18,835 nt of DNA, from IMG/VR virus record IMGVR_UViG_2529292922_000019. The stretch is one strand, 5' to 3'. The first letter of the stretch is position 1. Every line of letters begins with the position of its first letter. Positions 4,921 through 18,506 of this stretch are shown piece after piece. Made by a program: the position numbers and the translations under genes. The notes under the pieces are model-generated. The model was not told where the DNA came from. It ran no database searches and saw only the letters and a program-made list of their open reading frames with translations. Source of the DNA: a virus (taxonomy: Duplodnaviria > Heunggongvirae > Uroviricota > Caudoviricetes).

Positions 4921-5178
4921 ATGGATAAAAAGCAAATTGAGGCCCTGCAATCTATTATTGAAAAACAAGATGAAGCTATCAGGATTCTTTCATATCGCAC
5001 TGATATGATACTAAATATGCTTTCTGCATTAACGGCTGCGCTTGGTGGTACAAAAACAAACGTATACCGCGAAGTTGTTATTCAACAGATAGATAAATTT
5101 GAAAAACCATACCAGGTATTAATGCTCATCTTGCAGAACAAGAGAAAGACCATGCTCTTATGGCAATTTCTTCAGTAG
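4921..5178 (+). CDS. Hypothetical small helical protein (about 85 aa), antisense to the leftward early operon
   Basis: Strong SD (AGGAGG, 5-nt spacer) before ATG at 4921. AT-rich. 3' end overlaps the convergent 133-aa gene by 21 nt. No recognisable domain. Confidence 0.4.
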   Translation: MDKKQIEALQSIIEKQDEAIRILSYRTDMILNMLSALTAALGGTKTNVYREVVIQQIDKFEKPYQVLMLILQNKRKTMLLWQFLQ

Positions 5179-5988: not shown

Positions 5989-6407
5989 CTATGATGCGTT
6001 TTGTGCTTTCTTTTTACGGATTTCTTCGTAGATCATATTGTAATACTGTTTTTTCTCTTCAAGAGTTTTTAATAATTTATCCGCTTCACTTTCTGGCAGT
6101 TCGTCTAAGAGATCTAAAAAAATACGTTGTCGTGGCGTTAGAACCCTTGTTTCATAACTGGAGGCTGTGTTCGTTGATGATGAAACGATACCATCCATCC
6201 ATCCCCGGGGTAACCCAAAGGACTCTTCGATAATCTCCACCATATCATCAGCGATCCGTTTTTTCCCTTTTTCCCCTCTGGGTACAACATTCTTGATACA
6301 TAAGAAGGCTCGCGCCCGATCTTTCTGGCCACGTTAACCGCTTTACCATCGCATTTCTCATCACGAATTTTGATGAGTTGCTGTCGTCTAAATTCATATT
6401 TGTCCAT
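5989..6407 (-). pseudogene. DicA/cI-like HTH repressor, reading frame interrupted by a 1-nt deletion in a homopolymer (possibly a sequencing artefact)
   Basis: Two overlapping ORFs (6138..6407 with the HTH; 5989..6243 with a DicA-like C-terminus LTPRQRIFLDLLDELPESEADKLL). One extra T in the T6 run 6259..6264 would fuse them into a single protein of about 139 aa. Confidence 0.65.
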
Positions 6408-9333: not shown

Positions 9334-9855
9334 ATGGGAATAACTAAAGAACGATTGTTGGAAATAGCAAACCTTAGTGATTGGGCATTAAGTGATGAGA
9401 GAATTGTTTCTCCTCATGCTTATGAGTCAGTTACAAGTATAGAAATAACAACAATGGCTAGAATGCTGCTTGGTTATTTCAAAATAGAAAATAAAAAACA
9501 GATGGATAGTAATGTTGATATATGTGAGATTTTAGACGATTGGGGGGCTTGGGTTGTGGCTGGTAATAGTTCTATTGATTGGCAGGAAATAGCTGATAAA
9601 TATAAAAATGTTGTTCCTCATGGTAAAAAATCACGTCGTCAGTGCAGCAATGATGAAGGGCGAATTATTGACATTAGTATCCTTAGGTTAGAAAGATATA
9701 AGCAACAAGAATATGAGTTAATTGTTGCTCATTTCGTGATTGGTTTATCTCTTCGTGCTATTGCAAAGCAACAAGGATGTTCAGATGGAACAATTCGTAA
9801 AAGATTGCAAAAAGCCTTAGGTTTTTTGACTGGATATATAGCAATTACCAGTTAA
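9334..9855 (+). CDS. HTH transcriptional regulator with C-terminal sigma-70 region-4/LuxR-like helix-turn-helix (possible late-gene regulator or cargo regulator)
   Basis: ORF 9322..9855; preferred ATG at 9334 with GGAG at 6-nt spacing. C-terminus YELIVAHFVIGLSLRAIAKQQGCSDGTIRKRLQKALGFL is a classic region-4-like HTH. AT-rich codon usage. Stop codon overlaps the stop of the convergent nuclease gene (TTAA 9852..9855). Confidence 0.55.
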   Translation: MGITKERLLEIANLSDWALSDERIVSPHAYESVTSIEITTMARMLLGYFKIENKKQMDSNVDICEILDDWGAWVVAGNSSIDWQEIADKYKNVVPHGKKSRRQCSNDEGRIIDISILRLERYKQQEYELIVAHFVIGLSLRAIAKQQGCSDGTIRKRLQKALGFLTGYIAITS

Positions 9856-10493
9856 GAGTCAGCGGTTTTTTTACCAGTGTAATGGTATAAGGATACTCCC
9901 ATGTGTCTTACATGATATGGAAGCGCTGTTGCTGGATGCTTTGTGATACTCTTAAAGCGGAGGGGAGAGCCTTCCGCTTCAATTTCTGCGTCCGAAACGG
10001 TCGTAGAGAAAAATTCTTTCCATTCATTGAATTTTACTGCTGATTTGTCAGACTTTATATAAATTAGAATTCCTCCATGATCGTCACGTGACGTACCCGT
10101 GCCGTAACGTTCGGTTAGCTGAATCCAGCCATTATGAATAGATTTGGGGCCTCTCCATAATTTTGCTTCACCGATCCATTCGAATTTTCCGAATTGATGT
10201 TTAACTAATAAATCAACGTGACCGCCATGTTGAGTATCATGTTCAACATCATAAAACCTACCTTTCAGGAAATTTTTGATCGACGCTGTTAGCTCGTCCT
10301 CTCCCCACTTAGCATCTTGATAGAAGTGTTTGTCATTTTCTAAATTCTGAATAGCGTCGTCTAAATCTTCATAGAGTTGCTTTACAAAAATATTTTTGTC
10401 TGCAGCTAATTTTCTTTGAACCATTCCCCTAAATTCAGGATCCATTCTAATTAATGATTGAAGGTCTGCAGTACAGATGTTTACATCACTCAT
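9852..10493 (-). CDS. PD-(D/E)xK nuclease-fold protein (about 213 aa), last gene of the AT-rich operon
   Basis: ORF 9852..10556; likely start MSDVN at 10493, overlapping the upstream gene stop by 8 nt (ATGAGTGA). Motif ...DVEHD...GGHVDLLVK-x10-EWIGEAKLW fits the D...(D/E)xK arrangement of restriction-endonuclease-like nucleases. Confidence 0.55.
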   Translation of the reverse strand: MSDVNICTADLQSLIRMDPEFRGMVQRKLAADKNIFVKQLYEDLDDAIQNLENDKHFYQDAKWGEDELTASIKNFLKGRFYDVEHDTQHGGHVDLLVKHQFGKFEWIGEAKLWRGPKSIHNGWIQLTERYGTGTSRDDHGGILIYIKSDKSAVKFNEWKEFFSTTVSDAEIEAEGSPLRFKSITKHPATALPYHVRHMGVSLYHYTGKKTADS

Positions 10494-10914
10494 GCAGACT
10501 CTCCAAAAGACTCGAAGGAGTAAAGTATGGATAAAGATACTGGCTAAAATTATCAACCAATTCGCCAGTTTCTGGATGGTAAAAACTTCCTGTGTCTAAA
10601 GCATAGGAAATAAGATCATCTTCAACTGGTATTGGTTCTTCCGTTAAATTATCAATGTATTGAAAATGCATATCCAATAGATGTGCTTTATAGCTAGATA
10701 AATAATCAGTTGCTTTTATTAGCAGGATATAGTCATCTTTCGTATCAGTTAGATAGGTTAAACCATTGATAAGGGTTTTGTATGTAAAGTGATTGATATT
10801 TTTAGCATCTTTACTAACCAGAAAAAGAAAAAGATCACGACACACACTGCGAACAGGATCATTAAAATCCTGCTCTATTTGCGTGATAATGTCGTGATAT
10901 ATACTCTTTTTCAT
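10486..10914 (-). CDS. Hypothetical acidic protein (142 aa), middle gene of the AT-rich operon
   Basis: ATG at 10914 overlaps the upstream frame stop as ATGA. C-terminus overlaps the downstream nuclease start. Acidic, Tyr-rich, no recognised domain. Confidence 0.5.
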   Translation of the reverse strand: MKKSIYHDIITQIEQDFNDPVRSVCRDLFLFLVSKDAKNINHFTYKTLINGLTYLTDTKDDYILLIKATDYLSSYKAHLLDMHFQYIDNLTEEPIPVEDDLISYALDTGSFYHPETGELVDNFSQYLYPYFTPSSLLESLHE

Positions 10915-11201
10915 TTATGGCCTGATGATCTCGCTCTTCTTTTCTCTTCACAGGACTTAACAGAATCCAATATTTTTTCAACAATAAATATAATCGAATC
11001 AATGTTGTTACAGTTCTTCGCAATTGCTTCATGCAACCTAATTCTAGGATTATCAAGCATTGTCCTTTTTCCTGGTAATATTAACTCTACTGATAAAATA
11101 TGTGAAGAACTTTGTGGTAAATCCCAAATTTTTCCCAACTTAAACTTTGTCAATATTGGGCTTGCGGACTCTCCACTATGATGGTAAACATCTTGACGCA
11201 A
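10911..11201 (-). CDS. Hypothetical ORF; probably the C-terminal continuation of the upstream 222-aa gene rather than an independent gene
   Basis: The reading frame is open from 11363 down to 10911 with no ATG or SD (first candidate start is TTG at 11201). It overlaps the stop of the upstream gene, whose frame differs by one base at an A6 run (T6 on + strand, 11352..11357). Confidence 0.35.
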   Translation of the reverse strand: MRQDVYHHSGESASPILTKFKLGKIWDLPQSSSHILSVELILPGKRTMLDNPRIRLHEAIAKNCNNIDSIIFIVEKILDSVKSCEEKRRARSSGHK

Positions 11202-11332
11202 ACACTTTTGACTTGGTTTGAGTTTTAAAGAACTTGTATTGCCATCTGAGGTGATAAAAGATACATGAGAAATTCTGCCATCTACTTTTTCGTAAAGATC
11301 TTGTATTGAACCAAATAATTCAAGAGGATTGT

Positions 11333-12001
11333 TTAAAATAACGCCAGCTTCTTTTTTATAAATTTAGCCACAAGGTATTGTTGAGGCTGTGATTCACTTC
11401 TTGGAAGGATAGATAAATCAATCGTAAGAATTAATATTTTTTCTGCAGGCATTAGCATGATGGTATTAAAGCATTGCGTGACTTGGCGTGTTTTGCATTT
11501 TATTTCTCCACCATTAGCACGTAATTCCATACCCGCATCGCTAAGATGTGTTGGGTCAAGCTCTATCACTTCAGTGTAATACGCTTTGGATAAAAAAACA
11601 GCAGTGTCAATTTGTTTATCACGAATGATATCTTGACGTAGTTCAGCAAAATGCAGCTCAGTATCAGCAACTAACAGCTCCTCTCTGGATAAAGGAATTG
11701 GGTATTTTTCTGAGAAGGGGCTATTGTCCTTTTTCTGATTTGTGAAAATTGTTTGTAATTTTGCTACGTCTTCATCGGTGATTCTATAAATAGAAAGTAA
11801 TCGATTCCCGCTAAAAATTAAACCTTTCCAGAAATCGTCGATTCTGTCTTTTAGGTCGGGATTATGCTGAACTACACTATTTACACGTTCAATAAAAAGG
11901 GGTAATCCTTGGGCCGTTACACCCAGTGATGAACCAAGAAGCTTACGGGTGTTGCGCCAGCCAAAGCGTGAATTGATGTTTTTTACTGTTTGCTCAAGCA
12001 T
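11333..12001 (-). CDS. Hypothetical protein (222 aa), first gene of the AT-rich operon; possible HEPN-like Rx6H motif
   Basis: ATG at 12001 preceded by AAGGAAG (the ORF-track GTG at 12007 is less likely). Contains ERVNSVVQH (R-x6-H). AT-rich. If the homopolymer at 11352..11357 is corrected it would extend to about 365 aa. Confidence 0.5.
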   Translation of the reverse strand: MLEQTVKNINSRFGWRNTRKLLGSSLGVTAQGLPLFIERVNSVVQHNPDLKDRIDDFWKGLIFSGNRLLSIYRITDEDVAKLQTIFTNQKKDNSPFSEKYPIPLSREELLVADTELHFAELRQDIIRDKQIDTAVFLSKAYYTEVIELDPTHLSDAGMELRANGGEIKCKTRQVTQCFNTIMLMPAEKILILTIDLSILPRSESQPQQYLVAKFIKKKLALF

Positions 12002-12347
12002 TAACACTTCCTTAATTTTCCCTTAACAATTTAGGGTGCTAAACTTTTTTGCGCAGTTTACATAAAAAAATAGTGCGTACGCAAAAACTATCTAACATGA
12101 TGAGCTTTAACCGGGAAATTTGTATATGTTGTGAGCATAAAGTTGGCTGAGAAATCTAAAACGGGTAGAATGACTGCGGGTGCTTGAGGCTATCTGTCTC
12201 AGGCATGAACACCAAAAGGCAGATAGAGAAAAGCCCCAGTTAACATTACGCGTCCGGCAAGACGCTTAACATTAATCTGAGGCCATATCTATGCTCTACA
12301 CACGTAGGTTAGCCTCTTACGTGCCGAAAGGCAAGGAGAAGCAGGCT

Positions 12348-12503
12348 ATGAAGCAGCAAAAGGCGATGTTAATCGCCCTGATCGTCATCTGTTTAACCGT
12401 CATAATGACGGCACTGGTAACGAGGAAAGACCTCTGCGAGGTACGAATCCGAACCGGCCAGACGGAGGTCGCTGTCTTCACAGCTTACGAACCTGAGGAG
12501 TAA
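12348..12503 (+). CDS. hokD: Hok/Gef-family type I toxin (51 aa), HokD/RelF-like
   Basis: MKQQKAMLIALIVICLTVIMTALVTRKDLCEVRIRTGQTEVAVFTAYEPEE, near-identical to remembered HokD. AAGGAG SD upstream. An in-frame upstream ATG at 12291 gives a 70-aa extended ORF. Confidence 0.85.
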   Translation: MKQQKAMLIALIVICLTVIMTALVTRKDLCEVRIRTGQTEVAVFTAYEPEE

Positions 12504-12571: not shown

Positions 12572-12596
12572 ACCCGCTTCGGCGGGTTTTGTTTTT
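12572..12596 (+). terminator. Rho-independent terminator downstream of hok
   Basis: Hairpin CCCGC-TTCG-GCGGG (12573..12586) followed by TTTTGTTTTT. Confidence 0.55.
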
Positions 12597-15251: not shown

Positions 15252-15327
15252 GGCCCTTTAGCTCAGTGGTGAGAGCGAGCGACTCATAATCGCCAGGTCG
15301 CTGGTTCAAATCCAGCAAGGGCCACCA
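15252..15327 (+). tRNA. tRNA-Ile2 (anticodon CAU, lysidine type), ileX/ileZ-like, CCA encoded
   Basis: Cloverleaf folds by hand: acceptor GGCCCTT/AAGGGCC, anticodon loop CTCATAA, T-loop TTCAAAT. Near-identical to remembered E. coli ileX. Confidence 0.85.
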
Positions 15328-15328
15328 A

Positions 15329-15404
15329 CCGCCACTAGCCATCAGGAAAGAGCGTCAACCCTTTAAGTTGAGTGTGCGAGGTTCGAGTCCCCGGTGGTGG
15401 TCCA
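15329..15404 (+). tRNA. Atypical tRNA-like gene (anticodon loop CCTTTAA; weak D-stem); possibly a degenerate Arg/Lys-type tRNA
   Basis: Acceptor CCGCCAC/GTGGTGG, anticodon stem TCAAC/GTTGA, T-arm GTTCGAGTC, CCA encoded. Position 33 is C rather than U and the D-stem has only two clean pairs. Confidence 0.45.
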
Positions 15405-15417
15405 TTATCGGTATTCT

Positions 15418-15491
15418 GCGTTGTTAGCTCAGCAGGACAGAGCAATTGCCTTCTAAGCAATCGGTCACTGGTTCGACTCCAGTACAACGCG
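15418..15491 (+). tRNA. tRNA-Arg (anticodon UCU), argU/argN-like; no encoded CCA
   Basis: Acceptor GCGTTGT/ACAACGC, D-stem GCTC/GAGC, anticodon stem ATTGC/GCAAT with loop CTTCTAA, T-arm ACTGG-TTCGACT-CCAGT. Confidence 0.8.
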
Positions 15492-15507
15492 CTACACTTA
15501 TTTTCCC

Positions 15508-15533: not shown

Positions 15534-15619
15534 AAATGTCTCACAATTCAGACGGTTGACAGTTGTCTGTTTTGCGGGGAGTTTGTTAAGTAAGCGACTC
15601 GTCAGAACCGTATTGATAT

Positions 15620-17191
15620 TTACTGAGAGCTCAGATCAACTTTCCAGGGCAACAGATCGCGTACCCGGTTTGCCGGCCAGTCCTGGATATGTTCAATGAC
15701 GTAACGCAGCCACTTTTCTGGCTCCACATTGTTCAGACGGCATGTGCCGATCAGCGAGTACAACACCGCCGCATGTTCACCACCGCTGTCGGAACCCGCG
15801 AACATCCAGTTTTTCCGGCCTACGGCCACTCCCCGTAAGGCGTTCTCTGCGATGTTGTTGTCGATTTCCACCCAGCCATTACTGCAGTACACGTTCAGTG
15901 CATCCCACTGTTTCAGCAGGTATGCGAACGCTTTTGCCGTATCTGAGTGACGCGACAGTGTTTTCATCTGTTGCTGTATCCAGTCATACAGTGACTGCAT
16001 CAGTGGCGCGGCTCTGGCTTTTCTTGCCGCCAGACGCTGTTCTGCTGAACAGCACCGGACCTCTGCCTCGATGGCATACAGTTCACCGATACGCTGCAGG
16101 GCTTCCGTGGTGATGTAGGTGGGCGCTCTTGCATGCACATCGTGGATTTTTCTCCGGGCATGAGCCATACACGCGGCTTCCGTTATTCTGCCGGATTCGT
16201 ATAACGCCCGGTAACCACCGTAAGCATCGGCCTGAAGCACACCGCTGTAACCGGCCAGGTGATTTTGTGGATGGATACCTTTCCGGTCCGGACTGTACGC
16301 GAACCAGACCGCCGGGGGCATCTGTGAACCGGCGTTACGGTCATCACGGACGTAGACCCACAGCCGGGCTGTCCGGGTTTTACCGCTGCCCGGCTCCTGG
16401 ACCGGGACGGGGATATCATCAGCATGGACTTTACCGGGCATCAGCACATACTGGCGCAGGACGTCATACAGCGGCTCCAGCAGTTCAGCAACAGCACCTG
16501 TCCAGCGCCCCAGTGTGGCACGGCTCAGCTCCACGCCCTGACGACGGTATATTTCTGACTGGCGGTATAACGGCAGATGGTCTGCATATTTCCCGGTGAC
16601 AACATGGGCCAGAAGCCCCGCTCCGGCATAACTGCGTGCAATGGGTTTTGAAGGTACTGGTGCCTGCACGATATGGTCGCACCGGCAACAGGCCTGTTTC
16701 GGACGTTGTGTTTCGATAACCTTAAAGGCGCTGCTGATAAGCTCCAGTTGCTCTGACACATCACATCCCAGAGAACTGAGTTCACCACCACAGGCAGGAC
16801 AGCATTCCTCTTCCGGCCGGATAACCCGGGTTTCACGGGGAAGTGAGGCCGGTAACGGTTTACGGGCTGAAGACTGGCGCAGGGCGGATGGCAGTACCGG
16901 GTCATATTGCTCACCCAGCGTTTCCGCCATTTCTTCCTGAAGTGCGCTGATTCGCTCCTGTGCTTCCTGTATCTGCCGTTCGGTTTTTGCACGAAGTTTT
17001 TCTGAGCTTTTACCGAACTGCATACGTTGCAGTTTCGCAACCAGCGCCTTCAGCCGGTTGATTTCGGAAGCATAAGCCGCCACCCGCTGTGAGAGCAGGC
17101 GGTTGTATTCAGCCATCTGGCGGATGGTGTCCTGTTGCGTCTGCAACAGTGCCCGCAGGCGGGCGTTCTCATGAGCAAGTGAGGTGTCCAT
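15620..17191 (-). CDS. tnpC: IS66-family transposase TnpC (orf3)
   Basis: 523-aa ORF with N-terminal coiled-coil/leucine-zipper region and a Cys cluster, typical size and layout for IS66 TnpC. Confidence 0.85.
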
Positions 17192-17210
17192 ATCCTCACT
17201 TTACAACGGG

Positions 17211-17558
17211 TTATATGCGGATTCCAGCGCGTTCCGTTCGTTTCGGGTGCTTCCAGTTGATACCTTCAAGAAGCATGGATAACTGAGCCGGAGTAAGGTG
17301 CACCTTGCCGTCACGGGTGACTGGCCAGACGAAGCGGCCCCGCTCCAGGCGTTTGGTGAAGAGGCACAGTCCGTCACTGTCAGCCCACAACACTTTTATC
17401 TGGTCACCCCGGCGTCCGCGGAAGATGAACAGGTGTCCGGAGAACGGGTCATCCTTCAGGACGTTCTGAACTTTTGATGCCAGGCCGTTAAAGCCATTTC
17501 GCATATCGGTGATACCTGCAACCAGCCAGATACGCGAACCTGCAGGGAGAGATATCAT
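17211..17558 (-). CDS. tnpB: IS66-family TnpB (orf2)
   Basis: 115-aa ORF MISLPAGSRIWLVAGITDMRNGFNGLA..., characteristic of IS66 orf2. Confidence 0.85.
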   Translation of the reverse strand: MISLPAGSRIWLVAGITDMRNGFNGLASKVQNVLKDDPFSGHLFIFRGRRGDQIKVLWADSDGLCLFTKRLERGRFVWPVTRDGKVHLTPAQLSMLLEGINWKHPKRTERAGIRI

Positions 17559-18042
17559 CAGTGGCTGCTCCCTTTTATTTCGCGGATAAGTGTCTGTAAT
17601 AACGCCGGCGTCAGTTTACCTTTAAGCCTGAGAGTTCCGGCCGGCAGAACCAGCTCACAACACAGACTGTCGGACGGTGTATTTATCTGCTCTGGTTCCT
17701 GTGCGGGGGCCGGGATTTTATTATCCGGCTCCGGCGTTAACGTCACGGGAAGCAGTGCCGGCATATTTTTCCGGAAGGCAGCAGGCCACCTTTCCGGTAT
17801 TGATGGCGCCAGTTGAAGAGCAGGTTATCGTTGATTCCGTTTTCCCGGGCGATCTGCGCCACACAGGCTCCGGGCTGCAGTGACTGCTCCACTAAGGCGA
17901 TTTTAAACTCATAAGGGAAGTTGGGCCGCCGGGGACGTTTTTTTACCACGGGGGCTTCGGATATAACGGTGCTTTCAGGACGTACGACTGGTACCGTGGA
18001 AAATTGTCCGTAAAGGCAGGCATCAAGTTCCTGCTCCGACAT
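17558..18042 (-). pseudogene. tnpA: IS66-family TnpA (orf1), apparently split by a -1 frameshift at a T5 run (start codon uncertain)
   Basis: HTH-containing frame (..IARENGINDNLLFNWRHQYRKG..) ends at 17743, and a second frame (17558..17764) overlaps the tnpB start as ATGA. One extra T at 17765..17769 would fuse them. Confidence 0.45.
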
Positions 18043-18289
18043 GCCTGCGGGCAAAGGCCACGAAAGGCCAGCTCTCCGAAAGCGCACGAACATACTACAA
18101 ACTGTTGATTTTGGTACACCCAGGCGACGCCCGGCCACAACCCGGGGTAAATGTTCTTCAAAGTGAAGACGTAAAGCTTCAGTGATCCAGGTCCGGTGTT
18201 TCATACGATAGTGTCCATTAAAAATGATGGACATTATTTTTTGTAGAGCCGGAGGAAACAGACCAGACGGTTTTAAATGAGCCGGTTAC

Positions 18290-18506
18290 GCTCAAAAAGC
18301 CAGTGAGTCATCACAAAGTGCAGCAGAAGCTGAATTGTCAAGAAAGACGGCAGAAAGTGCAGCCGGTAATGCAGCCAGGGATGCAACGACCGCAGCAGAA
18401 AAAGCCCGGGAGTCAGCAGAAAGCGCACAGTCAGCGGAACAAAGCAGGATAGCGGCGGAAGACGCCGTAAACCGAATCCCCACCGTGGTGGGACCTCCCG
18501 GGCCAA
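18290..18506 (+). pseudogene. Orphan fragment of a side-tail-fibre-like gene (Ala/Ser/Glu-rich repeats plus GPPGP), cut on both sides by IS elements
   Basis: Frame open from the IS66 right end, reading ...AESAAGNAARDATTAAEKARESAESAQSAEQSRIAAEDAVNRIPTVVGPPGP, and runs into the IS50-like end, where a stop is created inside the IS terminus. No start codon or upstream context. Confidence 0.5.

Follow-up and report, generated by a model that had tools for sequence, protein, structure and literature searches.

The window analysed here is a stretch of 18,835 nucleotides from a virus of the Caudoviricetes (IMG/VR record IMGVR_UViG_2529292922_000019), and it matches AIEX01000028.1 exactly, a contig of GCA_000249095.2, the draft genome of a DEC1 strain in the Escherichia coli DEC collection. 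The DEC1 clone is EPEC O55:H6. Within this prophage a cassette of genes is located, in antisense orientation, between the gene for a Q-type antiterminator and a hok/sok locus. The first gene of the cassette (gene 1) is broken into two overlapping ORFs on the minus strand. The upstream ORF (11333..12001), of 222 amino acids, starts with an ATG at 12001, 5 nt downstream of the SD-like sequence AAGGAAG (12007..12013), and its last codons read GCT AAA TTT ATA AAA AAG AAG CTG GCG TTA TTT TAA, with the TAA stop at 11335..11333. These codons contain a run of six adenines (11357..11352), which is the T6 run on the plus strand (11352..11357) pointed out in the original prediction. The second frame, offset by -1, contains the ORF at 10911..11201, whose first own start is the TTG at 11201. 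This frame stays open upstream to 11363, where it is preceded by a TAA codon (11366..11364), and it overlaps the 222 amino acid ORF over 11333..11363, or about 10 codons, matching the overlap described beforehand. The extension between 11202 and 11363 contains neither an ATG nor an SD sequence, again in agreement with the earlier description, and it has no GTG. Insertion of a single A into the A6 tract produces a continuous ORF of 363 codons (10911..12001); the single protein that had been proposed is therefore obtained, but at 363 rather than approximately 365 amino acids. Relative to this restored gene, the 5' fragment consists of 217 native residues followed by five out-of-frame residues (KLALF) and a stop, while the 3' fragment (10911..11363, -1 frame) encodes native residues 218-363.

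The two ORFs are halves of one 363-residue prophage gene. Residues 1-348 of the restored protein match positions 1-352 of the PHROG 12777 profile from end to end (E value 5e-147). A search of 5.8 billion proteins yielded 32 matches, 30 of which have 359-408 amino acids and align with 96-100% of the restored protein, the remaining two being fragments of 219 and 305 amino acids. Full-length homologues occur in Salmonella, Klebsiella, Kosakonia, Cronobacter, Pantoea, Erwinia, Rosenbergiella, Enterobacter and Yersinia, and the unsplit orthologues from Salmonella, Yersinia, Klebsiella and Erwinia share 39-75% identity with the restored protein over lengths of 359-366 amino acids. In an alignment of 23 homologues (39-99% identity) the junction between the two fragments is ungapped, and more than half of the invariant columns (35 of 62) come after residue 217, among them DGRxS, DGN, CLRxDxYH, LGKxWD and LPGKRxMxD. 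The start-less extension at 11202..11363 encodes residues that are invariant in these 23 sequences (for example, DGRxS..F.T.DGN.S.L.L.P...CL), which indicates that it is not a chance open frame. Both fragments are collinear with unsplit orthologues and the break is a one-nucleotide change in length relative to close relatives (A7 to A6), as in a single frameshifted gene. The original prediction of one split gene is thus borne out by the A7 run of the complete genomes and by homologues, down to 39% identity, that continue across the junction. The intact gene is already known, and its RefSeq annotation is that of a hypothetical protein.

The whole gene 1 protein is spanned by a single AF2 model (pLDDT 83.5, pTM 0.81). 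The top Foldseek match of this model is RdgC and spans most of its length (350 columns), and the model resembles the RdgC/RexA-like fold across the base and centre domains. Gene 1 is therefore predicted to encode a protein with an RdgC/RexA/IML3-type fold. Proteins sharing the RdgC, lambda RexA and IML3-CHL4 fold are non-specific DNA-binding proteins, RexA being one component of the Rex exclusion system. Unlike these proteins as a group, gene 1 has no sequence-level relation to them: searches of Pfam, NCBIfam and PDB profiles did not place it in the RdgC or RexA families. The cassette also differs from the lambda Rex system in its partners, which are a 142 amino acid protein and a nuclease rather than a RexB-like membrane protein.

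The operon consists of gene 1, the 142 amino acid gene 2 and gene 3, which encodes a PD-(D/E)xK nuclease, and the three genes are translationally coupled. Gene 2 (10486..10914, minus strand; PHROG 11490) has an ATG that overlaps the stop codon of gene 1 (ATGA at 10911..10914). It has no known fold or family, and relatives beyond PHROG 11490 could not be recognised. Gene 3 (9852..10493, minus strand) overlaps gene 2 by ATGAGTGA (10486..10493) and encodes a 213 amino acid protein, predicted to be a nuclease of the BamHI/BstYI/BglII-like PD-(D/E)xK type from its restriction-endonuclease-like fold and a conserved D...(D/E)xK motif; E65, D94, E109 and K111 are invariant. The RefSeq start of gene 3, which gives 197 amino acids, is probably too short, as the 213 amino acid form fills PHROG 9664 and in Salmonella and Yersinia, too, gene 3 begins within gene 2, 8 nt from its end. 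Given the ATGA and ATGAGTGA overlaps, a premature stop in gene 1 should also lower the translation of genes 2 and 3. Pfam, NCBIfam, PADLOC, and PDB sequence and profile searches gave no family assignment for any of the three genes. PADLOC v2 matched no system to the cassette and returned only a weak PDC-S54 hit for gene 3 (E value 0.0016), which sets it apart from defence nucleases such as McrC, HamA and NucC, and tblastn against GenBank phages found two weak Acinetobacter matches only. Gene 3 further differs from the type II restriction endonuclease-like nucleases (BamHI, BstYI, OkrAI, BglII) in having no adjacent methyltransferase gene. The hok/sok type I toxin-antitoxin locus (12178..12503, plus strand), identified by Rfam (sok, 117 bits) and Pfam (HOK_GEF), is the immediate upstream neighbour of the cassette and is divergently oriented.

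The same three-gene cassette recurs in Salmonella and Yersinia, in line with the original prediction that restoring one base would change the operon from four genes to three. Elsewhere the layout is one of 360-365, 140-144 and approximately 210 amino acids. In Salmonella lambdoid prophages (L017-L019) the cassette is located between the Q and holin genes, while in Yersinia (L020-L022) it is located between a gene for a 2753 amino acid MuF/LPD polyvalent protein and the tail genes. Since it occupies different accessory slots in different genera, the cassette behaves as a mobile moron. A putative role in phage exclusion or defence is plausible.

The segment 9800..12100 was used in a megablast search of 5,426 complete E. 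coli genomes. The cassette was present in 14 of these at 99.3% identity or more, and 12 of the matches were one base longer than the query. All eight complete genomes that were fetched and aligned have A7 at the gene 1 site, and the other six show the same additional base in length; compared with the eight aligned genomes, the window has no private indel other than the contraction to A6. Where gene 1 is undisrupted it is annotated as a single 1092-bp CDS (WP_000893384.1 or WP_000893387.1), followed in E2348/69, RM9154-C1, 2013C-3181, STEC367 and CFIAFB20190172 by CDSs of 429 bp and 594 bp. Among contigs picked by the presence of a flanking 37-mer, A7 was found in all four from metagenomes and in 15 of 16 from IMG/VR. 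One IMG/VR locus (L043) was considered as a DEC1-like haplotype with A7 and was rejected, being E2348/69-like. In total, the 28 fetched loci from outside the DEC-project data all have A7, and neither these loci nor an exact look-up of the shortened proteins revealed A6 outside those data. The existence of homologues split at this same point, which the original prediction had named as telling against a single gene, was thus seen inside the DEC collection only; elsewhere the gene is unsplit.

The exact 222 amino acid product was found only in five NCBI drafts (GCA_000249075, GCA_000249095, GCA_000249155, GCA_000249195 and GCA_000249235) and in two Logan SRA re-assemblies, and one of its source names is "Escherichia coli DEC1B". 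The gene 1 tract is A6 in all five DEC1 assemblies. It is also A6 in a DEC6B-type genome, and three independent Logan re-assemblies of raw runs show A6. A shortened protein of a second haplotype carries the name ECDEC6B_1764, which belongs to the DEC project and to an unrelated clone. The two haplotypes are distinguished at nt 305 of the gene, which is T in DEC1A-E and C in ECDEC6B_1764, and the prophage with nt 305 = C is otherwise 0.9-4% diverged. Logan run SRR094137 and IMG genome 2529292907 both carry the C haplotype with A6 and do not differ from each other. Against its near-identical relatives, this second A6 carrier (L037) shows indels in homopolymer length only. All four combinations of C or T at nt 305 with A6 or A7 exist, and contigs from other sources carry the full-length proteins of the two haplotypes (62 for one and at least 1000 for the other). 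The presence of A6 on both haplotypes within one project suggests either that the same deletion occurred twice or that the chemistry and the assembler of the project under-call this run.

Homopolymer lengths elsewhere in these assemblies were compared as well. Over 15 kb, the window differs from the Sanger-sequenced E2348/69 by 18 substitutions and four indels, and each of the indels (at 5101, 6258, 11351 and 12591) takes one base from an A/T run of 6-7 bases in that genome. The five DEC1 assemblies have sporadic length changes in approximately 10% of assembly-by-site cases (runs of six or more), including a shortening of A6 to A5 that three assemblies show in the Q gene and, in one assembly each, changes of T7 to T6 and of A7 to A5. 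For the other four 7-base runs within 6.7 kb, the DEC1 assemblies give the right length in 18 of 20 assembly-by-site cases. The DEC drafts look like flow-based (454-type) data, a platform that we infer. In a sister paper, which came out of the same laboratory and centre in the same year, 454 Titanium 3-kb paired-end libraries were assembled with Celera (PMC3491183), and 454 assemblies are known to contain A/T homopolymer frameshifts that rise with run length (PMC3277595).

Gene 1 is also independently disrupted in unrelated E. coli sources (L002, L003, L008, L024, L025, L029 and L044). Two of the breaks are single-base losses, one at nt 173 (JB2) and one of the T in the ATG (N51). A metagenome has an extra A at nt 832, one isolate and one metagenome have A6 shortened to A5 at nt 560, and IS1 has inserted at nt ~58 and at nt ~748. 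Gene 2 is never broken, and gene 3 has an indel in two loci only (L013 and L044).

These comparisons establish that there is a single gene, where the indel lies and how long it is, and that it is confined to DEC-project data, whereas its origin in a base-calling error and not in a mutation is inferred. The reading that we prefer, at a probability of about 0.65 that is a judgement and not a computed value, is that A6 is an under-called A7 homopolymer, a base-calling error of the DEC drafts. If so, gene 1 is probably intact in the real genome, with A7; it is in the sequence as assembled, where the A7 found elsewhere reads A6, that a ribosome would stop five codons later, at 11333, and that the conserved C-terminal domain (residues 218-363) would be thrown into the -1 frame. 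The case resembles the homopolymer frameshifts of 454-type drafts, and equally a slippage pseudogene, in that an A/T run of seven is shortened by one and a conserved ORF is split; as in such drafts, discrepancies of the same class occur in neighbouring assemblies. It differs from sporadic 454-type errors in its unusual consistency, six genomes and three re-assemblies all giving the same call. Purely random sequencing error can be rejected, since A6 occurs in five of five DEC1 assemblies against an error of approximately 10% elsewhere, and this leaves either a systematic, site-specific error or a real allele. An artefact that shortens the run in every DEC1 assembly, in the DEC6B type and in three Logan re-assemblies would require a strongly site-specific bias, and this same reproducibility, in assemblies where other long runs vary only sporadically, speaks for a rival that we consider unlikely and yet worth serious attention, namely that a replication-slippage deletion within A7 inactivated gene 1 in DEC1, and independently or by recombination in DEC6B, leaving a pseudogene. 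True loss would not be out of character for a gene that is disrupted at other sites in unrelated E. coli, while gene 2 is never broken and gene 3 rarely, and a 206 amino acid C-terminal remnant of gene 1 is found on 130 contigs. Furthermore, no run in gene 1 is longer than this A7 and only a T7 at nt 404 equals it, which places it among the sites of the gene most prone to slippage. Against a real deletion are the lack of any A6 copy among the 28 loci and in the protein look-up outside the DEC project, the evident homopolymer noise of the DEC assemblies, and the sharing of A6 by two unrelated DEC lineages, which would need two events, both of them within one project. The run does not show the pattern of a phase-variable contingency locus either, the A6 length being confined to DEC-project data and the 28 other loci having A7. 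It is improbable that all parts of a more elaborate version hold together, in which A6 is real and arose separately in DEC1 and DEC6B, A7 is the most mutable of many off-sites in gene 1, the cassette is an uncharacterised prophage exclusion system, and -1 slippage allows a trickle of the full-length protein. If A6 were real and recurrent, it would mean that E. coli repeatedly turns off gene 1 of a cassette made up of an RdgC/RexA-fold protein, a 142 amino acid protein and a BamHI-like nuclease.

Both remaining explanations take the A6 sequence at face value and ask how its two frames could be translated. The A6 allele, and only that allele, creates the heptamer A_AAA_AAG (11351..11357, minus strand), which has the -1 slippery-site form X_XXY_YYZ and lies in the 0 frame (11357..11351), and a -1 slip upon it would give exactly the wild-type ..FIKKEAGV... 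One could therefore imagine a decoding device, either a -1 slip of the ribosome on this heptamer or stuttering of the RNA polymerase, yielding both a 222 and a 363 amino acid product. The heptamer is identical to that of dnaX and IS3-IS911 -1 frameshifting and in the correct frame, and A_AAA_AAG is among the most efficient motifs in E. coli when stimulators are given, whereas heptamers without stimulators reach only 2-10 times the background of 0.055% in this organism (PMC4066793). Here, unlike in dnaX and IS3-IS911, stimulatory elements are absent, and conservation extends neither to the heptamer nor to the two-frame layout: no SD-like sequence was found in the 20 nt upstream of the heptamer; no downstream structure was detected, the 131 nt around the site giving z = 0.35 and 126 of 200 shuffled sequences folding just as well; every homologue has one uninterrupted ORF; and neither the Salmonella (GTAAGAAATG) nor the Yersinia orthologues have the A tract. 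Because the site is unconserved and lacks stimulators, programmed frameshifting and transcriptional slippage were rejected as very improbable; even with a real A6, slippage would provide at most traces of the full-length gene 1 protein. The idea that the two ORFs are separately translated genes of a four-gene operon is more remote still and hardly deserves belief. Two gene callers do list the 96 amino acid product from TTG 11201, but this TTG has no SD before it, the 54 codons upstream of it encode invariant residues of the family, and the layout exists in no homologue; on account of the missing SD and the conserved coding sequence upstream of the TTG, independent translation of the 96 amino acid ORF was rejected.

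The split in gene 1 is best described as an ordinary one-base homopolymer discrepancy, probably an artefact, and not as a special coding device. It follows that the 222 and 96 amino acid products of the DEC drafts should not be treated as proteins, and that homopolymer indels in these drafts should be confirmed at the read level before any pseudogene is called. The cassette, for its part, is uncatalogued, pairing an RdgC/RexA-fold protein with a PD-(D/E)xK nuclease in several enterobacterial genera. This uncatalogued pairing, together with the varied prophage slots and the frequent breakage of gene 1, makes the cassette a reasonable candidate for phage-exclusion assays.

Several other features of the window may be recorded. 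The contraction of T7 to T6 at 6258, relative to E2348/69, splits a 139 amino acid gene (5989..6407, minus strand), divergent from a cro-like regulator, into ORFs of 89 and 84 amino acids; the same contraction and the 89 amino acid fragment are also present in the unrelated Logan assembly ERR4562137. The contraction at 5101 alters the end of a 92 amino acid ORF, while that at 12591 is intergenic and, being present in two of the five DEC1 assemblies only, is probably noise. ARAGORN reports a tRNA-Lys(ttt) at 15329..15404 (plus strand) that has no Rfam support, is not annotated in the RefSeq record of E2348/69 and is possibly degenerate; it is flanked by Rfam-supported tRNAs at 15252..15327 (anticodon CAT) and 15418..15492 (anticodon TCT). 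Just past the prophage tRNA genes, in a position where E2348/69 lacks it, is an IS66-family element (15590..18506, minus strand) that encodes a 523 amino acid DDE transposase, a 115 amino acid TnpB and a 163 amino acid HTH protein.
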